Source: Oscillospiraceae bacterium (GTDB lineage Bacteria > Bacillota > Clostridia > Oscillospirales > Oscillospiraceae). Taken from it: a DNA stretch of 49,035 bases. A program made the translations under genes and the position numbers. The notes beneath the pieces were generated by a model. It saw only the letters and a program-made list of their open reading frames with translations. It did no database searches and was not told where the DNA came from. Shown piece after piece: positions 1-12,856 of this stretch (positions are counted from its first letter, which is position 1; the number at the start of each line of letters is the position of its first letter). The stretch is taken from assembly GCA_020025615.1 (NCBI GenBank), contig JAHHRT010000001.1, positions 1-49,035 on the forward strand, in the 5' to 3' direction.

Positions 1-117
1 ACCTTTGTAGACGGGACCATCATGGAGTATGGCCGCATCATCGGCACTGTAGATGATGACGGCACCGTCTATGATCGGTACGGCAGCCGCACAGACTACA
101 CCTACGAGGAAGACTAA
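1..117 (+). CDS. 3' end of a hypothetical protein (partial; ...TFVDGTIMEYGRIIGTVDDDGTVYDRYGSRTDYTYEED*)
   Basis: Frame 1 is open from the window edge to TAA at 115-117, with a protein-like Gly/Asp beta-hairpin pattern. Confidence 0.6.
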   Translation, partial: TFVDGTIMEYGRIIGTVDDDGTVYDRYGSRTDYTYEED

Positions 118-363
118 AAGTTTGATAGTATAATTGCAGATCGTATCCTCGGAGATTATTAAAACAGGCTGCTACAGCGAATCGAACGGGAAATAAATGA
201 TCGGATATCTTAAATAAATGCATACTCGATTTATCAAATATATTAAATATAGCAATGAATACAATTGAAAAATTGCTGAAAATATTGCATTTTCTTTATG
301 AAGAATAAAATTCTTAATCGTTCATAGTTTAATATAAGTTTTAAAAATACTTGGAGATGAGTT

Positions 364-1326
364 ATGGATACAAATTACACATTTGATCAGTGGGTCTGGA
401 AATTAGACCAGGGAGATGTGGCTGCCAATAGCCAGTGGGACCAATATTGTGCGCAATATGGAAGCCGCTTTTATGCTATGCTGGATGAAAGCCGTATCAG
501 AATATATTATAATGCAGCCTGCGCAGGCGATCAGAAGGCCCGTTATTGGATGGGTGTTTCCTATGCCAGGACAAATCCTGATGTAGCACAACAATGGCTT
601 CAGCCCTTGTTGGATAAAAATAATATGTCTTCTATCCGTGTTATGCAGATGTGTTATGCCGGCGCTGCAGGATGTACAGGTGATCCTGCGAAATATGAAT
701 ACTGGCTCACGTTGGGAGCAAAACTAGGAGATCTGGGTTCTCAGATTTCACTTGCCGATCATTATTATATTCACGCATTAGAATCAACAACTTTTAATCA
801 GAAGTGGCAGCTGCTTCTGCAGGCAGAAACTTGGTACATTGAGGCAACCAAGCAGAGAAGCCAGAGAGGTGCAATCGGAGTCCTTAAAGTCTGTGATGAA
901 TTCGAAAATGGCATGATGGCACAATTTCGGTTCTCAAATTCAAACCAGAGATTGAACTATGCATTTGTCAAAGAATGTGTGAACAATAGCAATCCGAGCA
1001 CCAATGAAGAAGCGCAGATAAAAGATACATTCCTTGACTGGTTTGACGAAAGAATGTGGGCCTGCGACGTGGCTATGCACTGCCAGTGCGAACAGGATGA
1101 AATGCGAAATATGTATGTTGCCATGGGCGCATTTTATAGGAATTCTCAGTCTTATATGCCTGATCTTTTAAACGTTAAGCGAGGAATTTACTGTTTCTAT
1201 CAGGCAGGACAATATGGTGATTCCTTAGGTTTGCGAAACAGCCGTGAGATGGCAAGGGACTACGGTGTTTGGTTTGATGAAAGTAATCCTGAAGGCTGGA
1301 AAATAAGAGAACGGCTGTTTGACTAA
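364..1326 (+). CDS. Sel1-like (SLR/TPR) repeat protein
   Basis: 320-aa ORF with GGAG RBS; repeated A..GD..A...G..Y and W...A..G patterns (AACAGDQKARYWMGVSY, WLTLGAKLGDLGSQISLADHY, FYQAGQYGD). Confidence 0.65.
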   Translation: MDTNYTFDQWVWKLDQGDVAANSQWDQYCAQYGSRFYAMLDESRIRIYYNAACAGDQKARYWMGVSYARTNPDVAQQWLQPLLDKNNMSSIRVMQMCYAGAAGCTGDPAKYEYWLTLGAKLGDLGSQISLADHYYIHALESTTFNQKWQLLLQAETWYIEATKQRSQRGAIGVLKVCDEFENGMMAQFRFSNSNQRLNYAFVKECVNNSNPSTNEEAQIKDTFLDWFDERMWACDVAMHCQCEQDEMRNMYVAMGAFYRNSQSYMPDLLNVKRGIYCFYQAGQYGDSLGLRNSREMARDYGVWFDESNPEGWKIRERLFD

Positions 1327-1429
1327 GAGACTCATTAAAGGCAATTTGAATATCTCAACTTATATTTCCAATTGTTTTCGTTTGTTTGAAAAACATATAT
1401 TAATAATAGTAAAAAAGGAGAAAAGTTAA

Positions 1430-1885
1430 ATGTGGGCATTACTACCAGAACGAATCTGCGGGCAGCCTGTCAATATTGGCAGCGGTATTTCTCTGAATGA
1501 TTTGGCCAGCCAAATCAATATGTTAGGCAGGCAGAGAAATATTCCTGTCAGCACACAACTGGACCAGGCAAAGCATAACAACGGCGTCACATCACTTTTT
1601 AATGCTCCTGTGCAGTGCCTTGTTGTTTACCACCCGAATCATAGAAGCGACTATTACAACTACTTATTCGTTCAGCAACCAATGAATGGTGGAGTATTTC
1701 TTTCCCAGTATCTCGGTGGAAACAGTTCCAGCTTCAGTAAACAGATTCTGGGAAAAAGTATGGGTGGTATTTTTGGAGGCGTGGTTCAACGCTCTGGAAT
1801 GGCAAGAGAGCAGGAAGAACACGCTTATTACGATGCAATCAATGATTTGGTTGCTCAGGCTTTGTCCAATCTGCTATCGCGTTGA
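1430..1885 (+). CDS. hypothetical protein (151 aa)
   Basis: Strong AAAGGAG RBS upstream of ATG; no family recognised. Confidence 0.75.
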   Translation: MWALLPERICGQPVNIGSGISLNDLASQINMLGRQRNIPVSTQLDQAKHNNGVTSLFNAPVQCLVVYHPNHRSDYYNYLFVQQPMNGGVFLSQYLGGNSSSFSKQILGKSMGGIFGGVVQRSGMAREQEEHAYYDAINDLVAQALSNLLSR

Positions 1886-1924
1886 AACAGAAAGGAACCA
1901 TGCCTTTTACGCAAAGGAGGTGTT

Positions 1925-2050
1925 ATGATGCGTTACGAGAAGCCCGTAATTAAGAAAGTGGAAGCCAATGTTACCGTCCGGAACATGGCTGATGACCAGG
2001 GTGAGTGCCATGGCGGTCACTGCGTCCGCTGTATTCACGCCTATGGTTAA
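1925..2050 (+). CDS. putative RiPP precursor peptide, 41 aa (MMRYEKPVIKKVEANVTVRNMADDQGECHGGHCVRCIHAYG; start may be 1928)
   Basis: Translated by hand. AAAGGAGG RBS at 1913-1920, ATG at 1925/1928, TAA at 2048-2050. YxxPxI leader motif and Cys/His-rich C-terminus. Lies directly upstream of the PqqD and rSAM/SPASM genes. Confidence 0.85.
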   Translation: MMRYEKPVIKKVEANVTVRNMADDQGECHGGHCVRCIHAYG

Positions 2051-2064
2051 TCACAGCACAATCC

Positions 2065-2101
2065 AAAAGGAGTGCCCGGATCTGTTCGGGCATTCCTTTT
2101 T
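2065..2101 (+). terminator. stem-loop/intrinsic terminator after the precursor gene
   Basis: AAAAGGAGTGCCCGGA-tctg-TTCGGGCATTCCTTTTT inverted repeat (with G-U pairs) ending in a T-run. Confidence 0.75.
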
Positions 2102-2280
2102 GCTATAAAAGCTATCCTCTGAAAGGGCGGCCAGCAATCAATCTGCAATTGGAAAACCTTTTATACGTCTTCAGTCGCAGCTGTAATAGCTGCTTATAGG
2201 GCCAGTATAAACCACTTGTTAAGCTGGTGGCCTTGACTTAAGAATTACAAACAATCTATAAGCTGGGAAGTGAAACAAAA

Positions 2281-2574
2281 GTGAAGTTCAGTAAAAATCA
2301 GAATATCATTTTAAGAAAAGTACATGGGTCATTTTTTCTGGTAAATATCAGCGATCATTATGACAGGGACCGATGCATTCTGTTTGAATTAAACCATATT
2401 GGAGCATTTATATGGAACAGCCTGGATGTACCCAAAAGTATAGAGGAGGTATCCATTATCCTCCAGAGGGAACTTGCCGACCCAGTGGAGCTTTCAGTCC
2501 TTGAAAATGATGTGGAACAGTTCGTCTCTGAGTTGCGGAAACTCAGATTTTTGGAGGAAGAAGCCAATGGATGA
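2281..2574 (+). CDS. PqqD-family stand-alone RiPP recognition element (RRE)
   Basis: 97 aa (GTG start) with the PqqD pattern LRKVHGSFFLV...LFELNHIGAFIWNSL...SIEEV...LENDVEQFVSELRKLRFLE; overlaps the rSAM start by 8 nt. Confidence 0.88.
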   Translation: MKFSKNQNIILRKVHGSFFLVNISDHYDRDRCILFELNHIGAFIWNSLDVPKSIEEVSIILQRELADPVELSVLENDVEQFVSELRKLRFLEEEANG

Positions 2575-3670
2575 GATTTTTCTTGAAAATTCAATCAACA
2601 CAGTCCTTGATTTTGCTACAGATAAGCGGCTTGTATGGGAGAAAAATCACAAGCTCTATTCAGTCATTTTTGAAATTACGGCCAGGTGTAATTTTAACTG
2701 TGTCCATTGCTATCTTCATGACCACCATTGCTCTGATCAACTTTCCTTTGAGAGGGTCATTGAGATTATTGATATCCTTTATGAAAAAGAAGTGCTTTTT
2801 ATTACTTTTACAGGGGGAGACATTTTTACAAGGAAGGATTTCGCGCAAATTTACATGTACGCAAAAAGAAAAGGCTTTATCATTGAGCTTTATACAAATG
2901 GTTCTCTGATTAATGATGAATTAATAGACATGTTCAAGCAGTATCCTCCTTTGCTGATTGATATCTCGCTCTATGGCTCCTGCGAGGAAACATATAGAAA
3001 AACAACAGAAGTGTCCGGAGCTTTTGAAAAAGTAATTCATAATATAAGAAAATTGAAAGAAGCTGGAATTCGGGTTTCACTCAAGGCACCTGTTTTGAGC
3101 CTGTACTTCAATGAACTACCTGCAATGAAACAAATTGCAGAAGAGTTTGATCTGCCTTTCCGTACTGGATTTGAAATTTTCACATCCGTTGACAATGATG
3201 ATTCAGTAAAAAGCTACGCCGTTCCATTAAAAGATTCACTACGGTATGAACTGGAGCAGTTTGACAAAAATCCCAGGACCTATGGAGAGGGCTATGATAC
3301 TGAAGTTGTAGATCTTGTAAAATACAGACCACTATTTCGTTGTAAGCTTGGCAGATCAAGCTGTGTGATTGATTACCAGGGAAATATGTGTCCCTGTATG
3401 TCTTTCAGACACGTAGGAAAAAAACTAACCAGAGACAATTTTGATGAAATATGGACCAGTTTCAGACAGTATCCCCGTATGAAAGCAAGTCCTGATTATA
3501 AATGTCTGAGATGTAAGGCCTATGATTTTTGCGATATTTGTCCAGCTATGATGGATTTTGTTTATAAAGATATGGAATATGTGGACGAGCATTTCTGCAA
3601 GAGCGCCTTTGCCCGCTATAACCATTACATTCAGAAGCAATCTATTGAAGAGTCCCTGAAACATATATGA
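2567..3670 (+). CDS. radical SAM/SPASM-domain peptide maturase (367 aa)
   Basis: CNFNCVHC (CX3CX2C), FTGGD and YTNG motifs; SPASM Cys pattern C-KLGRSSCVIDYQ-GNMCPC...CLRCKAYDFCDIC...FC; ATG at 2567 after GGAGG. Confidence 0.93.
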   Translation: MDEIFLENSINTVLDFATDKRLVWEKNHKLYSVIFEITARCNFNCVHCYLHDHHCSDQLSFERVIEIIDILYEKEVLFITFTGGDIFTRKDFAQIYMYAKRKGFIIELYTNGSLINDELIDMFKQYPPLLIDISLYGSCEETYRKTTEVSGAFEKVIHNIRKLKEAGIRVSLKAPVLSLYFNELPAMKQIAEEFDLPFRTGFEIFTSVDNDDSVKSYAVPLKDSLRYELEQFDKNPRTYGEGYDTEVVDLVKYRPLFRCKLGRSSCVIDYQGNMCPCMSFRHVGKKLTRDNFDEIWTSFRQYPRMKASPDYKCLRCKAYDFCDICPAMMDFVYKDMEYVDEHFCKSAFARYNHYIQKQSIEESLKHI

Positions 3671-3773
3671 TAGAAAGGCAATGCCGCAAGAACTGCAGGT
3701 AAGCCTTCGATGCAGGAATACGCACCAATAGTGCTGGATGTAATTGAATAAAAAGCCGGGGAACATCCCAAGA

Positions 3774-3852
3774 AGAAGTGTCCCAAAAAAGTTAGACAAT
3801 ATTTTTAAGGAAATACTGTTCAAGCTGCCGAAAGGGCTTGCCGTCTGTGTAA
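3774..3852 (-). mobile_element. IS3/IS150-family right-end remnant (last transposase codons LHRRQALSAA* plus terminal inverted repeat)
   Basis: Minus strand 3852-3820 reads LHRRQALSAA*, resembling Firmicutes IS3 OrfB C-termini; GAAGTGTCCCAAAAAAGTTAGACA (3775-3798) resembles an IS150/IS861-type IR. Confidence 0.65.
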
Positions 3853-4213
3853 TGATATGCTCCCTCTATGAGAGACAGTGAAATGAAACACTGTCAAACA
3901 CGGAGGGAGCATTATTGTGCCGCAAAAGCAGAAACTATGTTTAGAAGAAAAAGTCAGACTCGTACGGGATTACCTCAAAGGGAAAATCGGTATCCGTGAA
4001 GCAGCTCGGAGAGGAGACGTTTTGCGAGACTCCATAAGGCAATGGGCACGCAACCATGAAACAGATGGAATTGAGGCTTTTTTACCGCATAGGAACCGTG
4101 TATACACTCCAGAGTTAAAGAAAAAGCGGTGGAGGATTATTTGTCCGGTACAGGAGGCCAAAACGATATTTGAAAAAAGTATAGCATTATATCAAAATTT
4201 TTGCAATAAATAA
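3853..4213 (+). pseudogene. IS3-family left end with a degenerate transposase OrfA (HTH)
   Basis: Starts TGATATGCTCCC...GACAG. ORF 3917 EEKVRLVRDYLKGKIGIREAARR...IRQW...NRVYTPELK shifts frame near 4125; the alternate frame AVEDYLSGTGGQNDI*KKY has a premature stop; no OrfB follows. Confidence 0.8.
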
Positions 4214-4215
4214 AG

Positions 4216-4252
4216 AAAAAGTGCTAAGAATACATGATTCTTAGCACTTTTT
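4216..4252 (-). terminator. intrinsic terminator downstream of tRNA-Ala (symmetric, probably bidirectional)
   Basis: AAAAAGTGCTAAGAAT-acatg-ATTCTTAGCACTTTTT perfect inverted repeat. Confidence 0.8.
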
Positions 4253-4328
4253 TGGTGGACTTGAGGAGATTCGAACTCCCGACCCCCACAATGCGAATGT
4301 GGTGCGCTCCCAGCTGCGCTACAAGCCC
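4253..4328 (-). tRNA. tRNA-Ala(CGC)
   Basis: Reverse complement GGGCTTGTAGCGCAGCTGGGAGCGCACCACATTCGCATTGTGGGGGTCGGGAGTTCGAATCTCCTCAAGTCCACCA: 76-nt cloverleaf, anticodon CGC, G3:U70 Ala determinant, encoded CCA. Confidence 0.97.
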
Positions 4329-4343
4329 AAAGATTACTTAAAT

Positions 4344-4372
4344 ATTATACGGCGGTGGTTTTGGAATGTCAA
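4344..4372 (-). promoter_or_regulatory. sigma-A promoter of tRNA-Ala
   Basis: Perfect TTGACA-17 nt-TATAAT on the minus strand. Confidence 0.85.
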
Positions 4373-4376
4373 GGAT

Positions 4377-4409
4377 AAAAAAGCAGTGGGAGCCGGAAGA
4401 CTCCCACTG
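4377..4409 (-). terminator. terminator of the CaCA antiporter gene
   Basis: CAGTGGGAG/CTCCCACTG stem followed by a T-run on the minus strand. Confidence 0.7.
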
Positions 4410-4417
4410 GAGTTTCT

Positions 4418-5380
4418 TTACATAGTGAACTGGATGATGCAGAAAGCGGCGTAGATGCAGAGCAGCAGGATGCCCTGTGCACGGCTCAGCTTCTTGCGGA
4501 AAATAGCGGGCAGGGTCATGATTGCCATGACGGAGAGCATCACGGGGATGTCCAGCACCAGGGATGCATTGTGACCGAAGAGGGTGCTTGCCACGGGGAC
4601 CTCGAAGGGAGCCAGGGTAACGCTGACGCCGGAGACCAGCACCAGGTTAAAGATGTTTGCGCCGATGACATTACCCAGAGACAGAGAACCGTGCCCCTTG
4701 ACAAGGGAGGTGATGGCGGTGACCAGCTCGGGCAGGGAAGTACCCAGAGCCACGAAGGTCAGAGCGATGACGGACTCGGGAACACCCAGAGCCTGGGCGA
4801 TGAGGGTGCCGTTGTTAACCAGCAGATTTGCGCCCACAGCAATGACAGCAGCGCCGCCGATGAGGAGCAGCAGGGCCTTCCACAGAGGCTCATCCTCGGT
4901 TTCTTCGGCATGCTCCTCTGCATTGGGCTCCTTAAAGCCGGCACGAATGGTGAGGTACATATAGACAACGAAGATAGCCAGCATGACGATGCCCAGAGGA
5001 CGGCTGAAATAGCCGGTGGTGTAGGCAGTCAGGCAGTAGATGGCAGCGGAGAGGAAGAAGAAAATGACGGGCATTTTCAGGGCCTTGGCATTGACAGGGC
5101 CGGGCTTTACGGTAATGGTGATCGCGGCAATCAGTGCGGTGTTGCAGATGATGGAGCCGATGGCATTGCCGTAGGCCATAGCACCCTGACCGTTCAGAGC
5201 ACCGGTGGCAGAAACCATAACTTCGGGCAGGGTAGTGCCGATAGAAACCACGGTAGCGCCCACGATGATTTCAGGAATGTGGAAGCGGCGGGCGATGTCT
5301 GTTGCGCCGTCAACGAACCAGTCGCCGCCTTTGATCAGCAGAACCAGACCCACAATGAATAGCAGTACGGGGATAAGCAT
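4418..5380 (-). CDS. calcium/sodium antiporter (CaCA, YrbG-like)
   Basis: Two alpha-repeat motifs GTTLPE...GNAIGS and GTSLPE...GNVIGANIFN; about 10 TM helices. Confidence 0.92.
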   Translation of the reverse strand: MLIPVLLFIVGLVLLIKGGDWFVDGATDIARRFHIPEIIVGATVVSIGTTLPEVMVSATGALNGQGAMAYGNAIGSIICNTALIAAITITVKPGPVNAKALKMPVIFFFLSAAIYCLTAYTTGYFSRPLGIVMLAIFVVYMYLTIRAGFKEPNAEEHAEETEDEPLWKALLLLIGGAAVIAVGANLLVNNGTLIAQALGVPESVIALTFVALGTSLPELVTAITSLVKGHGSLSLGNVIGANIFNLVLVSGVSVTLAPFEVPVASTLFGHNASLVLDIPVMLSVMAIMTLPAIFRKKLSRAQGILLLCIYAAFCIIQFTM

Positions 5381-5504
5381 GGAAAAAATCTCCTTTTCAA
5401 AATAGATTGGCTGTATTGCCTACAAAAAAAGACCCGACAAGCCCAACCGGAAATGTCAAGTCTCAAAAAGGCTACAGGACAGTTCATGCATAGCTGGACA
5501 GATA

Positions 5505-5597
5505 TACATGAGTCTCGCAATTGGCGACAAGCCAGGCATTAAAGCCGTCATGTTGACCTGCCGCGCGCAGAACGCGCTTGCTACTCCCCCATAGTTT
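5505..5597 (-). ncRNA. yybP-ykoY (Mn2+) riboswitch
   Basis: Minus strand GGGGAGTAGC...GTCAACATGAC...GCGAGAC conserved blocks in the antiporter leader; TTGACT-17-TATTCT promoter upstream. Confidence 0.82.
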
Positions 5598-5716
5598 GTT
5601 ATCGTTCTTTTATTGTTCCCCAAGAATATCATGAAAATACTGGAAAGTCAAGATGTTGGGGCAGCTTTTTGACAGGAAATCATTTTGAATTGTGCTAGTA
5701 TGATGGAAAAGGAGGA

Positions 5717-6775
5717 ATGAATATGAAAATGTTTTGGAAGGAGCTGCTGATCTGTGCATTTATGGGTCTGGTGCTTCCCGGTGCGCTTATGGAGGTCTCC
5801 TCCTCATTACTGCCCCCAAAAGGTGAAACAGAGGTGGTGGCAGAAACCACCCAGGAAACCGTCGAGGCATTTGGGGACGAGCTTTTTGTAAGCGGTATCA
5901 AGATTCCGGTGCGCTGGCCTGACGGCAGTGTGGAATCGGTGAATATGGAGGAATACCTGGTGGGTGTAGTGCTGGCGGAGATGCCCGCTTCCTTTGAAAC
6001 CGAGGCATTGAAAGCACAAGCCGTTGCCGCCCGGACCTATGCGGGGAAGATTCATAACGCCGAAGAAAAACATGGGGACGGCAGTGTTTGCACCGACAGC
6101 CAGTGCTGCCAGGCCTATATTTCCCCCACGGAGTACATCCAAAAAGGGGGCTCTCCTCAGGCTGTGGAAAAAGTCAGAGGGGCAGTGCTGGCAACGGCAG
6201 GGGAGGTGCTCTCCTATGATGGAGAGCTGATTGAGGCCACCTATTTTTCGTGCTCCGGCGGCAATACCGAAGATGCAAAAGCCGTGTGGGGAGCGGATTT
6301 TCCCTATCTTCGCGCGGTGGCCAGTCCCGGGGAGGAGGGAGCTGAATACTATCGGGATACCGTGAGCTTCTCGAAGGAAAAGCTGGAACTGGTTCTGGGG
6401 GTGACCTTGGGAGAGAAGCCGGAATCCTGGCTGGGAGAAATTACCAGAACACCGGGAAATGGCGTGAAAACCATAGAGATCGGCGGAAAGAAGTTTCAGG
6501 GGACACAGCTGCGGCAGCTGCTGGGGCTTCGCTCCACCTCCTTTACAGCGACTACGGGAGATCATGGGCTTACCATCGAGACCAGAGGCTACGGTCACCG
6601 GGTAGGCATGAGCCAATATGGAGCCGATGCCATGGCGGTTTCGGGGAAAACCTATGGGGAGATCCTCAGCTACTATTACCAGGGGACAGAGCTTACCCAA
6701 TACATAGACACCACCGTACCGGGCGGGGCTGTGGAAGTGATTGCCACAGAGCCAACGGAGAAAGATGTTGCATAA
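5717..6775 (+). CDS. spoIID: stage II sporulation protein D (lytic transglycosylase)
   Basis: EEYLVGVVLAEMPASFETEALKAQAVAARTY, HGDGSVCTDSQCCQAY, GYGHRVGMSQYGA. Confidence 0.92.
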   Translation: MNMKMFWKELLICAFMGLVLPGALMEVSSSLLPPKGETEVVAETTQETVEAFGDELFVSGIKIPVRWPDGSVESVNMEEYLVGVVLAEMPASFETEALKAQAVAARTYAGKIHNAEEKHGDGSVCTDSQCCQAYISPTEYIQKGGSPQAVEKVRGAVLATAGEVLSYDGELIEATYFSCSGGNTEDAKAVWGADFPYLRAVASPGEEGAEYYRDTVSFSKEKLELVLGVTLGEKPESWLGEITRTPGNGVKTIEIGGKKFQGTQLRQLLGLRSTSFTATTGDHGLTIETRGYGHRVGMSQYGADAMAVSGKTYGEILSYYYQGTELTQYIDTTVPGGAVEVIATEPTEKDVA

Positions 6776-6796
6776 TTCATAAGATAGTGTTATAAT
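6768..6796 (+). promoter_or_regulatory. sigma-A promoter of the nucleoside kinase gene
   Basis: TTGCAT-17-TATAAT. Confidence 0.6.
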
Positions 6797-6837
6797 GACA
6801 TACCAAAACTATACAAATAGCCCAAGGAGGCGATGGT

Positions 6838-8538
6838 ATGTACTTAACGATAAACGGCCGCCCGGTGGATGCGCAGCCGGGTCAGTCCCTGGAAATGCTG
6901 GCAAAACAGCTGGGATTTACCGAGAAGGAACTTTCACGGCGTCCTCTGGCGGCGAAAATCGCCGGCGAGGTTTTCACCCTCAACTATTTGCCGGTTCGCA
7001 AGTCCGATGAGGAAAGGGAAACGCCTCTGATTCGACGGGCTATGGCGGCATCCGGCGGACAAATCCGTCTGCTTCGCTACTCGGATCCCGGCGGTAAGAA
7101 GTGCTATATCCGCACGGCGCAGTTTGTGGTATTTCTGGCAATGCGTCAGCTCTGGCCTGAGAGTACGCCGAAGATCAGCTGTACTCTGGGCTCCAGCGTA
7201 TACATATCTGTGAGCGGTGCGAAGAATTTTTCCGCAGGGGAGCTTAAAGACCAGGTTCTGAAGCTGATTGCCGAAGATATTGTGCTGGCACGTCGGCGGG
7301 TTCCCTTGGAGCAGGCCATTGCCCGGTATCGTGCTTCCGGGCAGGAGGACAAGGCAAGGCTCCTGTCCTGGCGGAATGTAGACTATTTTGACGAGTATTC
7401 CTACGGGGATTTTTCCGACTACTACTATGGAGAAATGATGCCTTCTACCGGGTATCTGACGGTATGGGACATTCTGCCGGCGGATGGCGGCTTTGTGCTG
7501 GTTTATCCCGATGACCGGAATCCGGACCAACTGTCCCAGGTGCCGTCCATGCCCAATTTCTTCAGCGTCTTTACAGAAGGCGAGCGATGGTGCGAGCTTA
7601 TGGAGTGCCAGACGGTGGCGGACCTCAATGAACTGACCACCTCCGGCGGAATCCGGGAACTGATTCGGGTGAATGAGGCACTGCATGAGAAGCGATTCGC
7701 ACAGGTGGCGGATATGGTCTGCCAGCGTGGGGCCAAGGCTGTGATGCTGGCTGGACCCAGCTCCTCGGGCAAGACCACCTCGGCAAACCGTCTGGCGATT
7801 CAGCTGCGGGTCCACGGAAAGAAGCCCATCCTCATGAGCCTGGACAACTACTATATTGACCGGGATAAGATTGCCCCCGGCCCGGACGGCAAGCTGGATT
7901 TGGAGCACATCAACACCCTGGATACGGAGTTGTTCCGCAAGAACATGGGCGCTCTGCTGGCAGGGGAGGAGGTAGCCCTTCCTACCTTCAACTTCATGAC
8001 CGGGCGGCGGGAATGGAGCGGGAAGACACTGCGGCTCTCAGAGGAATCCGTCATCATTGTGGAAGGACTTCACGGCCTGAATCCGCAAATGCAGCCGGAG
8101 GGTGTGGATTCGTCTCTGGTGTTTAAGCTCTACATCAGCCCGCTGCTGCCGCTGAACCTGGATAACCACAATCGAATCCCAACCAGCCTGCTTCGGCTGC
8201 TGCGGCGGATCGTCCGAGACTACGAAACCCGGGGCTCCTCGGTCCAGAACACACTTTCCATGTGGGACTCTGTGCGGCGGGGCGAGGAACGGTGGATCTT
8301 CCCCTATCAGGAGAATGCGGATGTCATCTTCAACAGCTCCACCCTCTATGAGCTGGCAGTGCTCAAAAAGCATATCTACCCGCTGCTGACAGCGGTTCAG
8401 CCGGAGGATGAGTGCTATGATGATGTTCGGGAGATTGTCAAGGTCCTGAACTTCGTCCAGGAGGCAGATGTGGACGACGAAATCCCGCCCACCAGTCTGG
8501 TCCGGGAGTTCATCGGCGGAAATACCTTCTATAAGTAA
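6838..8538 (+). CDS. nucleoside (uridine) kinase family protein with N-terminal TGS/ThrRS-like domains
   Basis: P-loop AGPSSSGKTT, LDNYY, IIVEGLH, RRIVRDYETRG; N-terminal region resembles the ThrRS N1/N2 domains. Confidence 0.85.
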   Translation: MYLTINGRPVDAQPGQSLEMLAKQLGFTEKELSRRPLAAKIAGEVFTLNYLPVRKSDEERETPLIRRAMAASGGQIRLLRYSDPGGKKCYIRTAQFVVFLAMRQLWPESTPKISCTLGSSVYISVSGAKNFSAGELKDQVLKLIAEDIVLARRRVPLEQAIARYRASGQEDKARLLSWRNVDYFDEYSYGDFSDYYYGEMMPSTGYLTVWDILPADGGFVLVYPDDRNPDQLSQVPSMPNFFSVFTEGERWCELMECQTVADLNELTTSGGIRELIRVNEALHEKRFAQVADMVCQRGAKAVMLAGPSSSGKTTSANRLAIQLRVHGKKPILMSLDNYYIDRDKIAPGPDGKLDLEHINTLDTELFRKNMGALLAGEEVALPTFNFMTGRREWSGKTLRLSEESVIIVEGLHGLNPQMQPEGVDSSLVFKLYISPLLPLNLDNHNRIPTSLLRLLRRIVRDYETRGSSVQNTLSMWDSVRRGEERWIFPYQENADVIFNSSTLYELAVLKKHIYPLLTAVQPEDECYDDVREIVKVLNFVQEADVDDEIPPTSLVREFIGGNTFYK

Positions 8539-8543
8539 ATCAA

Positions 8544-8578
8544 AAAGCGGCTCCATCCAGCGTGGATGGGGCCGCTTT
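8544..8578 (+). terminator. intrinsic terminator
   Basis: AAAGCGGCTCCATCCA/TGGATGGGGCCGCTTT stem; a second stem at 8598-8624 serves the convergent gene. Confidence 0.7.
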
Positions 8579-8636
8579 CTGGCTGAGAAGATCAAAAAAA
8601 GAGGTGCCCAGCGGACACCTCTTTACAAGTATCATA

Positions 8637-8939
8637 TTAAAGGGTTACAGGGGGAGCAGGGTAGTGCAGAATCATGGATACCAGAGTGCAGATAATGAAA
8701 GCAAAGAATGCGGTCACCATCCACAGACTGCGCCGATGGGAAAATTCTCCTGTGATATACAGCCAACCCAGGGATAAACCAGAGGCAGCCATGGTTACAA
8801 TACCAAAGATAAACTTGAGGGTATTCATCCCCCGCCAAGAAAAGAGCACAAATAAAATAAATGCGGCAGTAATACCCAGGATGACCCGAGTCATCATGAT
8901 TTCCATATGCCGATAGCGATTACGCTTTGCCACGACCAT
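8637..8939 (-). CDS. hypothetical small membrane protein (3 TM)
   Basis: GGAGGG RBS, three hydrophobic segments, own terminator. Confidence 0.75.
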   Translation of the reverse strand: MVVAKRNRYRHMEIMMTRVILGITAAFILFVLFSWRGMNTLKFIFGIVTMAASGLSLGWLYITGEFSHRRSLWMVTAFFAFIICTLVSMILHYPAPPVTL

Positions 8940-9033
8940 CCCTCCATAAAACTCTCTTGCTTTGTGACATCATATCATATCCTGTCAGAAATTGCAATCG
9001 TTTCCTGGACAAAAGGCAAATTTTTCGGAAATA

Positions 9034-9063
9034 CTTGCGCCACGGGAAAAGCAATGCTATAAT
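9034..9063 (+). promoter_or_regulatory. sigma-A promoter upstream of scpA
   Basis: TTGCGC-17-TATAAT with extended TG. Confidence 0.6.
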
Positions 9064-9226
9064 AACGTGAAATGTTATGATTTCCCCCGGTTGTCCTTTT
9101 TCACCCAAGCCCCTTCTTGACAGTGGGGAAACGATCATGGGATGCTTCTATTCTATGCACGGGGACCTCATAATAAACCGGTTCTGCCCTGGAGCGTTCC
9201 GGAAATTTACAAGCCAAGGAGCCGCT

Positions 9227-10006
9227 ATGGGAGAACCGCAATATCGGCTGGAGGGAATTGTCCACACCCGCAGTGAGGAGATGGAGGACTTTGAAGGCCC
9301 TCTGGATGTTATTTTTTTACTTCTCAGCAAGAATAAAATAGAGATCCAGGATGTTTCCATCACTGCCATCCTGGAACAGTATCTGGCTTATCTGGACGAG
9401 ATGAAGCGGCTGGATATGGAGATTGCCAGTGAATTTATCACCATGGCTTCCCATCTGATGCTCATTAAGACCAAAATGCTCCTGTCTGCTGCGGAGCAGG
9501 AGGAAGCAGAGAACGAACTGGATTTGCTGCGCCAGAGCCTGGTGGAACGCCGCCGGAAGGAAGCCATGGAGCAGATCCGACAGGCCATCACCGTGCTGGA
9601 GCCTCGAAACGACATCGGAAGATGTATTTTCACCAAGGACCCGGAACCACTGAAACGGGCCAAGGGCTATCGCTATCAGCATGATCCCTCGGATCTTCTT
9701 CGGGCACTGGATGCCATTGCCGAGCGTAACAGCAATCGGCTGCCGCCGCCCACTGCCAACTTCAGGGGCATCGTGGGAAAGGAACCCTATCCCGTTACCC
9801 GTAAGTCTGCCGAGGTGCTCCGGCATCTGGTGCTGCGAGGGGTAGAGCGGCTTAAAAATCTGTTCCGGGGAAATCGCAGCCGCAGTGAGGTGGTTGCCAC
9901 CTTCCTGGCCATTCTGGAACTGTGTAAAACCAACCGCGTCACGCTGGAAAATGATATTACCGGCGAAAATCCCAATGTCCGCTTACTGGACAAGGAAGAT
10001 CATTAG
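9227..10006 (+). CDS. scpA: segregation and condensation protein A
   Basis: FEGPLDVIFLLL, EFITMASHLMLIKTKMLL, VVATFLAILEL; start placed at the ATG after AAGGAG. Confidence 0.93.
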   Translation: MGEPQYRLEGIVHTRSEEMEDFEGPLDVIFLLLSKNKIEIQDVSITAILEQYLAYLDEMKRLDMEIASEFITMASHLMLIKTKMLLSAAEQEEAENELDLLRQSLVERRRKEAMEQIRQAITVLEPRNDIGRCIFTKDPEPLKRAKGYRYQHDPSDLLRALDAIAERNSNRLPPPTANFRGIVGKEPYPVTRKSAEVLRHLVLRGVERLKNLFRGNRSRSEVVATFLAILELCKTNRVTLENDITGENPNVRLLDKEDH

Positions 10007-10017
10007 GAGGTGCGCTG

Positions 10018-10608
10018 ATGGAGCCTGAACAGCTGCAGCGGGCCATTGAGGCCATTTTATTTGCCGCCGGAGAGCGGATTGAGATCAGCCGCCTGGCGGC
10101 AGCATTGGAAACCGATCCTTCGGATATTGAGAAAGCCACCGACGCTTTGGCAGATCAGCTGGCATTTGACCGTCGGGGCATCCGAATTCTGAAATTAGAG
10201 CGGGGATACCAGATGGTATCCTCCGGCGAGATGGCGGATTATGTTACAAAAGCGTTGGAGACCCGCAAGCCTCCCAGACTGTCTTCCTCTCAGCTGGAGA
10301 CCTTGACCATCATTGCTTATTATCAGCCGGCGACTAAGGCTATGGTAGAGCAGATTCGCGGAGTGGACAGTGCCTATTCCGTATCTGCGCTGCTGAATAA
10401 GAAGCTCATTGAAGAGGCGGGACGTCTGAACGTGCCTGGACGGCCCATTCAGTACCGAACCACACCAGATTTTCTCAGAACCTTTTCTCTGTCATCTCTG
10501 GATGAACTGCCACCCATTGACAAGATTGCCTTTGGCGAGCCGATTCAGATAGAGGAAACCCAGAAGACAGAGACACCGGCAGAGCCTGCACAGCAGGAGG
10601 CTACGTAA
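10018..10608 (+). CDS. scpB: SMC-Scp complex subunit ScpB
   Basis: IEAILFAAG, LETLTIIAYYQP, IRGVDS, GRPIQYRTTPDFL. Confidence 0.95.
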   Translation: MEPEQLQRAIEAILFAAGERIEISRLAAALETDPSDIEKATDALADQLAFDRRGIRILKLERGYQMVSSGEMADYVTKALETRKPPRLSSSQLETLTIIAYYQPATKAMVEQIRGVDSAYSVSALLNKKLIEEAGRLNVPGRPIQYRTTPDFLRTFSLSSLDELPPIDKIAFGEPIQIEETQKTETPAEPAQQEAT

Positions 10609-11246
10609 TGGGCTGGCTCATTACCCTGGGAATTTTGGTCCTCATTTGGCTGATCCCGGTGGGCCTTAGTATTCGCTATACACAAGAAAAATTCCATGTT
10701 CGGCTGCGGGTGGCGGGAATTTCCTTCCCATTTCCTAAGATAAAAGAAGAGACAGAAGTGCAGCACCCCCAGGAAAAGCAGGTGCAGCCAAAAGCTGACA
10801 CCGCCCCGGCAGAGAAACAAGCCCCCAAGCCCCGGAAACGCAGATTCGGATTTTTCCACAAGAGAAATTTGGGGTGGGAGGATTATAAACCCTTTGTCCG
10901 ATTGGGTCTTGACTTCCTGGGAGATCTGCGGAGAAAGCTTCAGATAGACCGGCTGGATTTCCGCCTGGTTCTTGCAGGGGAGGACCCCTGTGATGTGGCG
11001 GTAAACTACGGCAGAGCCTGGGCCGCAGTGGGCAGTCTCCTGCCTCAGCTGGAACGGCTGCTGGTCATCAAAAAACGCGATGTCCAGGTGGAATGTGATT
11101 TCACAGCAGAGAAAACGAAAATATCCGGTCGGGTGGACCTGCATCTGACCGCGGGCAGGGCCTTGTGCCTGGCAGTGGGCTATGGCCTGCTGCTCCAGAA
11201 AGAATTAACCAATTTGAAGAAAAGAAAAGGCGGTGCTTCGTTATGA
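10608..11246 (+). CDS. DUF2953 / YtfI-like protein
   Basis: N-terminal TM helix, EDPCDVAVNYG motif, position upstream of ytfJ. Confidence 0.7.
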   Translation: MGWLITLGILVLIWLIPVGLSIRYTQEKFHVRLRVAGISFPFPKIKEETEVQHPQEKQVQPKADTAPAEKQAPKPRKRRFGFFHKRNLGWEDYKPFVRLGLDFLGDLRRKLQIDRLDFRLVLAGEDPCDVAVNYGRAWAAVGSLLPQLERLLVIKKRDVQVECDFTAEKTKISGRVDLHLTAGRALCLAVGYGLLLQKELTNLKKRKGGASL

Positions 11247-11629
11247 GCCAGAAACTTCCCAATATGCTGGATAGTACCATTCAGAAGATCCGTGAGATGG
11301 TGGATGTAAACTCTGTCATCGGTGACCCCATCACCACTCCTGACGGCGTGACCATCATTCCTGTGTCCAAGGTCAGCGTGGGCTTTGGCGGCGGCGGATC
11401 TGACTTCGCCTCCAAGACCAGCCAGGAAAACCCCTTCGGCGGCGGTGTGGGCGGCGGTGTCAAAGTGACCCCCATCTGCTTCCTCATTGTGAAGGACGGT
11501 AATGTTCGGATGATGCCTGTGGCACAGCCTGCAAACTCTACCACCGAGCGTCTGGTGGAGATGCTGCCGGACACCCTGGAGCAGATCAATTCCTTTATCG
11601 AGTCCAAAAAGACAGTGAAAGGGGAATAA
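11243..11629 (+). CDS. ytfJ: GerW/YtfJ family sporulation protein
   Basis: MVDVNSVIGDPI...IIPVSKVSVGFGGGG...FGGGVGGGVKVTP. Confidence 0.92.
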   Translation: MSQKLPNMLDSTIQKIREMVDVNSVIGDPITTPDGVTIIPVSKVSVGFGGGGSDFASKTSQENPFGGGVGGGVKVTPICFLIVKDGNVRMMPVAQPANSTTERLVEMLPDTLEQINSFIESKKTVKGE

Positions 11630-11668
11630 TCCCAACCTTTTCCGGGCACCCTATTCCCGGGTGAGGAT

Positions 11669-12856
11669 ATGAAACGACTGATTTTCGGAACGGCGGCTGG
11701 ATTGCTGGCTGCCGTTCTATTTTTAACAATTCCGGCAGAGGCGGCCTCTGCACAGCGTGCCATTGTTCTGGACGAGGTCGGCAAAAAGGTGCTCTATGAG
11801 AAGGACGCAGAAAGCCGAAGCCTCATTGCCAGCACCACCAAGATTATGACCGGGCTGCTGGTTTGTGAAAACTGCAATGTGCTGGCCCCAGTGCGGATTC
11901 CCAAGGAGGCAGTGGGCATCGAAGGCTCCTCTATGTATCTTCGGGAAGGGGAGGTCTTGACCATTCAGGAGCTTCTCTACGGCATGATGCTTTCTTCGGG
12001 AAACGATGCAGCGGTGGCCCTGGCCATTGCCTGCGGCGGAACCGTGGAGAATTTCGCCGAAATGATGAACGCAAAGGCCCGGGAACTGGGAATGACGGAA
12101 AGCCATTTTGAAAATCCCAACGGCCTGGACGGAAAACAACACTATTCCACTGCCCGGGATCTGGGAATTCTGGGGCTGGAAGCAATGAAAAATCCCATCT
12201 TTGCCAAGACGGTCTCTACAAAGACGGTACAGGTGGGCAATCGGTATTTGAAAAATCACAATAAGCTGCTGTGGCGGGTTCCCGGAGCCGACGGTGTCAA
12301 AACCGGGTATACAAGAGCGGCGGGACGGATTCTGGTATCCAGTGCTGCCCGCAATGGCAGACGGGTGGTGGCGGTGACCATCAACGACCCCAACGATTGG
12401 CAGGACCATAGCACGCTCCTGGAAAATGCCTTTGCCCGATACCGGGAAAAGACCTTGATTCGGGAAGGGGAGCGGGTGGGTGCTCTGGAAATTGCCGGGG
12501 GAGAATCCCACCAGGTTCCCATCCTGGCGGCCCGGGATTTTTCCTGGTCGGTGGTGCCGGGAGAGCAGCCTATGGTGATCCTGCCCGGGCCGGGGTTTGC
12601 CTACGCACCGGTGGTCCGGGGCGGCTTTGCCGGGAATGCTTATGTGGTATTGGAGGGCAAAGCCATCGGAACCATCCCGGTGGTTTACGGCAGAACGGTG
12701 GAGATCCACCAGGAGCCGAAAAAGAGTATTTGGGAACGCTTGTTTGGAGGAAAACAGGATGGAGAGACTGCAAAAGATACTGTCTGCCCGGGGGGTAGCC
12801 TCCCGGCGGCAGGCAGAAGAGATGATAAAAGCGGGGAAAGTCCGGTTAAACGGTAA
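11669..12856 (+). CDS. dacB: D-alanyl-D-alanine carboxypeptidase (peptidase S11)
   Basis: ASTTKIMT (SxxK), SGN (SxN) and KTG motifs, signal peptide; ytfJ-dacB-rluB synteny. Confidence 0.88.
   Translation: MKRLIFGTAAGLLAAVLFLTIPAEAASAQRAIVLDEVGKKVLYEKDAESRSLIASTTKIMTGLLVCENCNVLAPVRIPKEAVGIEGSSMYLREGEVLTIQELLYGMMLSSGNDAAVALAIACGGTVENFAEMMNAKARELGMTESHFENPNGLDGKQHYSTARDLGILGLEAMKNPIFAKTVSTKTVQVGNRYLKNHNKLLWRVPGADGVKTGYTRAAGRILVSSAARNGRRVVAVTINDPNDWQDHSTLLENAFARYREKTLIREGERVGALEIAGGESHQVPILAARDFSWSVVPGEQPMVILPGPGFAYAPVVRGGFAGNAYVVLEGKAIGTIPVVYGRTVEIHQEPKKSIWERLFGGKQDGETAKDTVCPGGSLPAAGRRDDKSGESPVKR

Follow-up and report, generated by a model that had tools for sequence, protein, structure and literature searches.

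The left end of a contig from an Oscillospiraceae bacterium (JAHHRT010000001.1, positions 1 to 49,035; this whole stretch of 49,035 nt is referred to as the window) contains three adjacent genes which, according to an original prediction made from the sequence alone, form a candidate radical S-adenosylmethionine (rSAM) cassette for a ribosomally made peptide with posttranslational modification (RiPP). A short open reading frame (ORF) preceded by a ribosome-binding site (RBS), a hairpin, a 97-aa PqqD-like gene and an overlapping 367-aa rSAM gene had been described, and all of these were present on direct reading. The features of the cassette were as follows.

1913..1920, forward strand: Shine-Dalgarno sequence AAAGGAGG of the precursor gene, read directly
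1928..2050, forward strand (alternative start at 1925): precursor gene, identified by ORF reading, conservation and coding signature
2065..2101, forward strand: intrinsic-terminator-like hairpin located 3′ of the precursor gene, with a 16-bp stem and a U run at its end
2281..2574, forward strand: stand-alone PqqD-family RiPP recognition element (RRE) of 97 aa with a GTG start; PF05402 match of 39 bits versus a cut-off of 23.4
2567..3670, forward strand: rSAM/SPASM enzyme of 367 aa without a fused RRE; PF04055 and PF13186 matches above cut-off

The AAAGGAGG sequence is followed by two ATGs in the same frame, one at 1925 and one at 1928. Translation from the first yields a peptide of 41 aa, MMRYEKPVIKKVEANVTVRNMADDQGECHGGHCVRCIHAYG, and translation from the second, which is located 7 nt past the RBS, yields 40 aa. 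A scan of species-representative genomes detected 12 further loci; the precursor was 40 aa in length in every one of these relatives and was preceded in most of them by a strong RBS of the form AAAGGAG(G/A), 6 to 9 nt 5′ of the ATG. The original prediction had proposed a 41-aa precursor starting at 1925; the ORF itself was retained, while the true start is probably ATG 1928 because the relatives share the 7-nt spacing from the RBS and all measure 40 aa. The peptide consists of a leader spanning approximately residues 1 to 25, with a family pattern of M-x-Y-E-K-P-x-V/I-K-K-V/I-E-A-D-V..., followed by a Cys/His core, C-H-G-G-H-C-V-R-C-I-H-A-Y-G, and contains three cysteines. Identity to 10 aligned relatives was 63 to 88%. 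Twenty of the 40 residues were invariant over 13 copies, including Y3, P6, C27, H28, G29, G30, H31, C32, V33 and C35, such that C-H-G-G-H-C-V-x-C is the invariant core motif of the family. In an analysis of the ORF from 13 loci, variable nucleotide columns were distributed over codon positions 1, 2 and 3 as 17, 11 and 38, respectively, and pairwise codon differences comprised 1,210 synonymous versus 557 nonsynonymous changes. The precursor ORF is a real coding gene under purifying selection.

No NCBIfam or Pfam model matched the precursor at an E value of ≤0.1. Called precursor proteins formed 12 clusters, all without a name, in a collection of 5.8 billion proteins versus at least 354 homologues of the enzyme, and gene callers usually overlook this gene. 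The hairpin following the precursor gene had a folding energy of −26.8 kcal/mol (z = −5.47), with none of 200 shuffled sequences being equally stable, and is separated from the PqqD gene by a spacer of 180 nt. A riboswitch or other structured RNA in the region between the peptide and PqqD genes was considered and rejected; an Rfam match to ftsZ-DE scored 26.6 versus a cut-off of 72.2 and overlay the terminator. A look-up of expression for positions 1400 to 3700 listed no RNA holder, which counts neither for nor against transcription.

In RiPP pathways, docking of the peptide is the task of PqqD-family modules; RRE-leader complexes have already been solved, and their binding mode is known. The PqqD protein of the window matched PqqD-type models of NCBIfam below threshold only. 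A PqqD homologue was found abutting the rSAM gene, directly upstream, in all 12 genome loci. Modeling of the complex between the RRE and the leader had been set as a test by the original prediction, which had also pointed to the YEKPVI stretch of the leader beside the YxxPxL-type RRE-binding sites of lasso leaders. The predicted complex of PqqD and the precursor had an interface score (ipSAE) of 0.72 (0.72, 0.75 and 0.72 in separate runs) versus 0.02 for the highest-scoring of three controls; 58 of 80 solved complexes attained this mark, as did 2 of 110 mismatched pairs. Custom, shallow alignments of the PqqD protein and of the peptide were used as input. The runs shared at least 90% of contacts, and the partner had a predicted local distance difference test (pLDDT) score of 55 to 58. 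In the predicted interface, residues 1 to 16 of the peptide (tightest at residues 6 to 12, K-P-V-I-K-K-V) contacted residues 30 to 41 and 77 to 88 of PqqD, on the β3/α3 face, and the Y-E-K-P-V-I stretch fell within this region, in agreement with its proposed role. The set of 28 interface residues included 9 of the 17 positions that are invariant in PqqD (hypergeometric P = 0.02). The RRE-Finder paper (PMC7470986) describes the leader bound to an RRE as a fourth strand, lodged between strand 3 and helix 3, and the predicted interface corresponds to this β3/α3 groove. This modeling supports binding of the precursor leader by PqqD.

The rSAM gene overlaps the PqqD gene by 8 nt. PF04055 scored 86.1 bits (cut-off of 29.5) and the SPASM domain, PF13186, scored 23.6 bits (cut-off of 21.5). 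The CX3CX2C motif was located at C41/C45/C48 and did not vary, either among the 12 family members (12 of 12) or among all 12 sequences of a wider alignment. As this motif starts at residue 41, the 40 residues before the first cluster cysteine are too few to accommodate a fused recognition domain, and the earlier description of a SPASM enzyme lacking its own RRE was borne out. The cysteine array of the SPASM region (C259-x12-G272-x4-C277, C313-x2-C316-x5-C322-x2-C325 and C344) was invariant down to relatives of 31 to 50% identity. The seven-cysteine SPASM motif has the form C-x9-15-G-x4-C ... C-x2-C-x5-C-x3-C ... C and was found in this enzyme with a final spacing of x2 instead of x3. The enzyme thus has the full predicted cofactor-binding set of a SPASM maturase. 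At least 354 homologues were detected in a large protein collection; the best 120 had identities of 60 to 75% and were nearly all unnamed metagenome proteins, with two having generic names. The closest solved structure by sequence was that of the sactisynthase SkfB (E = 1.6e-17), and a model of the enzyme (pLDDT of 71) matched the folds of SkfB, CteB, anSME, SuiB, PqqE and TigE about equally (template modeling scores of 0.45 to 0.63). There were 77 matches to NCBIfam models, every one far below cut-off: AhbD (101.5 bits versus 500), MftC (83.7 versus 265), AlbA (68.8 versus 850), StsB (64.7 versus 625), PapB (57.6 versus 340) and SkfB (51 versus 300). PqqE was not among the 25 models listed for this protein.

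The original prediction had suggested inspecting the neighborhoods of rSAM homologues for similar peptides. A peptide was present in all 12 genome loci, and the order was PqqD-rSAM-peptide in each, with the peptide ORF located 40 to 117 nt 3′ of the enzyme gene. The carriers were assigned to Clostridiales, Oscillospiraceae, Ruminococcus, Faecousia and Acetatifactor, together with one metagenome-assembled genome (MAG) binned as Olsenella. In a reverse test, a metagenome scan was seeded with the peptide alone and yielded 37 loci. In 36 of them, an rSAM gene was the immediate upstream neighbor of the peptide in the same orientation; PqqD was also present in 31 of these 36, and the other 5 ended at a contig edge. 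Overall, the peptide adjoined an rSAM gene in 49 of 50 loci, and the 49 rSAM-bearing loci represented 25 lineages at 95% rSAM identity. Because this linkage recurs both in the genome scan and in the peptide-seeded reverse test, the peptide, PqqD and rSAM genes are one unit, as had been claimed. Among the 50 loci, an upstream location of the peptide relative to PqqD, together with a terminator of its own, was seen in the window alone, all the relatives having the PqqD-rSAM-peptide order. A scan for the peptide motif upstream of rSAM in the relatives detected none, because the peptide there lies downstream of the enzyme gene.

The cassette was not found in 24 genomes of the same genus, in 16 other families of the order (completeness of 66 to 100%) or in 398 other genomes forming an even sample of the class, with two genomes going unscored. 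No match to the cassette was obtained by tblastn in plasmid or phage records at an E value of ≤1e-30. Among the genomes searched, the distribution of the cassette is very patchy.

A profile was searched against 1.84 billion representative proteins, producing 43,494 matches at an E value of ≤0.001. The family proper corresponded to three rows of above 440 bits, below which there was a continuum of enzymes of 350 to 380 aa, plus some of ∼440 aa with an N-terminal extension; the distant relatives P0137, P0144 and P0145 had an extra ∼100 aa at the N terminus. No NCBIfam cut-off was reached by 19 more distant rSAM relatives (10 plus 9 that were genome borne). A profile of the distant relatives matched 14 of the 398 other sampled genomes of the class, giving 16 loci (L054 to L069) whose enzymes were relatives of the 31 to 39% type. 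A PqqD-sized ORF adjoined the rSAM gene in all 16 loci, with PF05402 being detected in 10 of 10 tested, and a motif scan detected a small ORF with a K-Y-x-K-P-type leader in 12 of the 16, most having diverse, Cys-containing cores. Two precursor candidates were present in each of L055 and L061, and two PqqD genes in L066. A distant variant of the cassette (L051/L052, positions 3429 to 5105) had an rSAM of 49% identity and a PqqD of 36% identity; its peptide retained the leader and C-x-G-G-H-C-V, with two cysteines, the third being absent, and a different tail. The sole core feature common to this variant and the wider clade was a pair of cysteines 4 to 8 residues apart, and the aromatic and third-Cys positions varied among them. 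Judged from sequence, the family is one defined member of a broad, unnamed clade of apparently PqqD-dependent SPASM cassettes in Clostridia.

Taken together, linkage, purifying selection, domain content and Cys motifs were observed, docking was predicted, and the locus is likely to be a compact RiPP-type maturation cassette in which a leader docks on an RRE and a core is cross-linked by an rSAM enzyme. The 40-aa precursor peptide would be the substrate, and its leader would be captured as an added β-strand by the stand-alone PqqD-family RRE, which would then hand the Cys/His core, C-H-G-G-H-C-V-R-C, to the RRE-less rSAM/SPASM enzyme for cross-linking by 5′-deoxyadenosyl radical chemistry. The terminator 3′ of the peptide gene in the window would cause the precursor to be transcribed more abundantly than the enzyme. 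How the enzyme acts, which cross-link it forms, what becomes of the leader and what biological role the product has are what we infer as parts of this best explanation. If the peptide is modified at all, there is about an even chance that the cross-link is a thioether between a Cys sulfur and a carbon, as in sactipeptides and ranthipeptides. This chemistry was preferred because a Cys pair with four residues in between is the single core feature kept in every variant and because the wider clade serves Cys-pair cores. Other cross-links would account for about one third of our expectation, with the remaining share falling to a peptide that is left unmodified.

Several observations weigh against this interpretation. 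The chemistry of the cassette is a prediction from sequence and models, and homology cannot assign the type of reaction, because every NCBIfam equivalog cut-off failed and the known folds match about equally. The SPASM part of the AlphaFold model was poor, with residues 256 to 282 having a pLDDT of <50, and the predicted docking score may partly reflect recall of the known RRE-leader binding mode, the alignments being shallow. A leader peptidase, an exporter or an immunity gene was conserved within 4 to 5 kb of the cassette in none of the 25 lineages, and a missing linkage to protease, exporter and immunity functions is unusual for a secreted bacteriocin. Conservation was also inverted (63 to 88% identity for the peptide, 60 to 75% for the enzyme and 35 to 45% for PqqD); the peptide, leader included, is more conserved than the enzyme or PqqD, a pattern more in line with a cofactor or a signal than with an antibiotic. 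Finally, one locus (L048, positions 1184 to 1306) had a lone peptide gene on a contig of 2,997 nt that lacked both an rSAM and a PqqD gene; this peptide carried E26K and H31Q, changes at two otherwise invariant positions. This copy may be a decaying or second-site copy; it adjoins a divergently oriented ORF of 200 aa.

A tentative alternative, which we hold to be the strongest of those considered, is that the peptide is the substrate and is modified without formation of a thioether. The product could then have a C-C or C-O cross-link, such as a cyclophane on His or on the Phe/Tyr next to the last residue, or could have Cys linked to His or a residue epimerized, with the cysteines serving as cluster ligands, as a disulfide or as metal ligands. 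Consistent with this alternative, two invariant histidines lie within the Cys pair, SPASM enzymes of this fold carry out a wide range of reactions, with SuiB (a Lys-Trp link), PqqE (a C-C link), anSME and TigE among the fold matches, and the NCBIfam scores for MftC, AhbD and NirJ are as high as those for the sactisynthases. Full-length similarity is, moreover, a poor guide to rSAM chemistry according to PMC10288494. Set against these points are the retention of a Cys pair 4 to 8 residues apart as the only constant feature of the core, at the expense of the aromatic and third-Cys positions, and the finding that the best sequence match among solved structures was a sactisynthase.

Use of the same machinery for a nonantimicrobial product is unlikely, although several observations are in its favor. 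The product could be intracellular or a signal, and could be cofactor-like, redox active or metal binding, as are PQQ, mycofactocin and SCIFF; the core of three cysteines and two or three histidines would be the functional head, and a companion protein of ∼160 aa and Sel1-repeat proteins encoded near the cassette (described below) would be possible partners. The near-invariance of a 40-aa peptide across enzymes that are 60 to 75% identical, the lack of a conserved protease, transporter or immunity gene in every lineage, the presence of metal ligands in the core (invariant C27, H28, H31, C32 and C35) and the recurrence of the ∼160-aa protein, with its invariant Y-H-P-x-H, in three gene orders and 21 of 50 loci are all in keeping with such a role. 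However, the patchiness of the cassette (0 of 24 genomes in the genus and 0 of 398 in the class) and its position next to a tRNA gene, within an island of low GC content, are typical of accessory, competitive traits and not of core cofactors; no cofactor-dependent enzyme was linked to it, the ∼160-aa protein was found in only 9 of 25 lineages, and export and leader cleavage could occur in trans. A more specific form of this proposal, that the near-invariant, Cys/His-headed modified peptide joins PQQ and mycofactocin as a third cofactor-like system derived from a peptide, with a metal-binding, redox or signaling function within or between gut Clostridia, is a long shot. It could include an undescribed cross-link, for example via the invariant histidines of C-H-G-G-H-C, and the ∼160-aa and Sel1-repeat proteins as partners. 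It is highly improbable that the small ORF is an independent zinc-binding or regulatory protein and that the rSAM and PqqD proteins act elsewhere, for example on the ∼160-aa protein or a metabolite: C-x4-C-x2-C with histidines could hold Zn or an Fe-S cluster unmodified and an orphan copy without an enzyme exists in L048, but the peptide lies beside the rSAM gene in 49 of 50 loci despite variation in the order of the other genes, PqqD is a peptide-binding module on which the leader docks in the model, with all three controls at ≤0.02, and the ∼160-aa protein was not found in 16 of 25 lineages.

The interpretation as a leader-guided, cross-linking cassette was compared with known systems. In sactipeptide and ranthipeptide maturases, the RRE is fused at the N terminus of the enzyme. 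The systems of this class (SkfB/SkfA, AlbA/subtilosin, CteB/thermocellin, PapB/freyrasin and StsB) resemble the cassette of the window in being small, in combining a SPASM rSAM with a short, multi-Cys leader-core peptide and in reading the leader with a PqqD-like RRE; SkfB was the best sequence match among solved structures, and both SkfB and CteB ranked with the top fold matches. Unlike these systems, the window has the RRE as a separate gene and an enzyme with 40 residues before CX3CX2C; SkfB aligned to it from SkfB residue 110. The equivalog scores were 5 to 17% of the cut-offs, the core C-H-G-G-H-C-V-R-C fitted no peptide model, and the cassette had no linked transporter or protease.

The target sites in the precursors of PQQ and mycofactocin are Glu/Tyr and Val-Tyr, respectively. 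Those pathways (PqqA/PqqD/PqqE and MftA/MftB/MftC) are alike to the cassette in having a tiny, highly conserved precursor, a discrete PqqD and a SPASM rSAM without an RRE, and may also resemble it in the strength of the precursor expression signals. They differ in that the core of the window is Cys/His rich, the MftC cut-off was not reached by the enzyme (83.7 versus 265), the further tailoring enzymes of those pathways were not linked to the cassette, and the cassette is sporadic rather than lineage-wide. A dependence of PqqE action on PqqD is reported in PMC9389541.

Clostridia also encode SCIFF, a widely conserved, small, Cys-rich peptide whose gene neighbors that of a SPASM rSAM and which likewise lacks an exporter or protease of its own; it differs in having six cysteines in 45 residues versus three in the window peptide, which no SCIFF model matched at an E value of ≤0.1. 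The SCIFF maturase needs no separate PqqD, and in the family of the window a PqqD neighbor is obligatory. The GeoRSP and SynChlorMet systems (TIGR04302/04303 and TIGR04248/04250) are computationally defined combinations of a discrete PqqD, an rSAM/SPASM enzyme and a Cys-rich peptide, and the PqqD of the window matched ScmD and the GeoRSP PqqD weakly (ScmD, 20.1 versus 100). The enzyme fell well short of both systems (ScmE, 63 versus 400; GeoRSP rSAM, 72.7 versus 400), and the cassette is simpler, with a single rSAM and no kinase or peptidase.

The architecture itself is already known, and many orphan rSAM RiPP cassettes have been cataloged. In the literature, 9,205 rSAMs with neighboring discrete RREs have been collected and full-length similarity is described as mispredicting rSAM chemistry (PMC10288494), and discrete RREs co-occurring with rSAM enzymes cluster with the RREs of sactipeptides and ranthipeptides (PMC7470986). 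The peptide of the window was not described in the available parts of PMC10288494, PMC7470986, PMC9389541 and section 4 of PMC9062424. Full-text literature searches with core and leader strings matched only an unrelated paper on kiwifruit, and keyword searches returned general rSAM-RiPP papers only; the supplementary data of these papers, which cover 9,205 rSAMs that have a discrete RRE and 22 new pathways, may list the family. The suggestion that the family is uncharacterized agreed with these searches, with the lack of an NCBIfam or Pfam match for the peptide, with the failure to reach any equivalog cut-off and with the absence of a named peptide cluster. The cassette is a previously unnamed RiPP-type family and belongs to a known kind of system, that of rSAM/RRE peptide maturation.

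The family supplies an exact 40-aa substrate, a chaperone and a single enzyme, which are all that is needed for a bench test. The cassette is carried by Clostridia of the gut and the rumen and is often encountered in metagenomes. As it sits in a wider unnamed clade with a shared type of leader, one reconstitution would annotate many genes. Because the peptide is nearly invariant and no export genes accompany it, it may have a role other than that of an antibiotic.

The genes and features surrounding the cassette were as follows.

364..1326, forward strand: protein of 320 aa without a Pfam or NCBIfam match, which holds the place of the Sel1-repeat proteins of relatives
1430..1885, forward strand: protein of 151 aa (X160), a companion of the cassette with 27 to 30% identity to ∼160-aa proteins of other loci
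3917..4213, forward strand: transposase-type helix-turn-helix (HTH) fragment of 98 aa; PF13518 HTH_28, 27.6 bits; PF01527 HTH_Tnp_1, 23.4 bits
4253..4328, reverse strand: tRNA-Ala(CGC) gene, detected by ARAGORN; Rfam tRNA, 61.9 bits

X160 and Sel1-repeat proteins were the only families, other than the trio itself, that recurred within 4 to 5 kb of the cassette. The gene for the X160 homologue lay upstream of PqqD in some loci and downstream of the peptide in others. In the alignment of these proteins, V-x-Y-H-P-x-H was invariant, and a long helix occupied the C terminus. No Pfam or NCBIfam match was found for X160, and its Atlas clusters were named “hypothetical protein” only. A structure model had a pLDDT of 58.7, there being too few sequences to model it well, and a Foldseek search of this fold gave no convincing match (best E = 0.087). 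An RnlA-like fold was considered and rejected, the best VIA-align Z score being 6.0 with a root mean square deviation of 3.5 over 90 residues, which is within the stated noise of the tool.

In 19 of 50 loci, Sel1-repeat proteins were encoded next to the cassette, and in most cases the ∼160-aa protein was there as well. Examples are located at 111 to 3128 of L002 and at 2109 to 3008 of L004, and these proteins are up to 1,005 aa in length with 14 Sel1 repeats. Assignment of the 320-aa protein of the window to this family was rejected, as there was no Pfam match and BLASTP against the Sel1 protein of L004 gave an E value of 0.096 only.

The GC content was 37 to 45% over positions 1 to 4500, at the left end of the contig, and 49 to 59% over 4501 to 8500, with the low-GC stretch ending at the HTH fragment and the tRNA-Ala gene. 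Weak NCBIfam matches of the IS481, IS630 and IS3 types were also obtained for the HTH fragment. Beyond the tRNA gene (positions 4501 to 12000 of the window) were housekeeping genes, namely, those for a Na/Ca exchanger, SpoIID, ScpA, a DacA-type peptidase, DnaX, AlaRS and ComEC. A search for repeats flanking the cassette detected short, chance-level matches only. The cassette looks to have been horizontally acquired, in a tRNA-adjacent island that is cut by the end of the contig.

In the Olsenella-binned MAG (L011), the cassette was located in DNA of higher GC content, and minus-strand ORFs resembling a tyrosine recombinase, as judged by eye, were present 3′ of the peptide at positions 5490 to 6340. 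This setting would fit either mobility or misbinning. An ORF of 38 aa with six cysteines in a zinc-ribbon-like spacing was present between the peptide gene and the gene for the ∼160-aa protein in L010 only (positions 3189 to 3305). In L012, a DUF5685 protein (PF18937, 156 bits; positions 2859 to 3713) was encoded directly upstream of PqqD, replacing the ∼160-aa protein.

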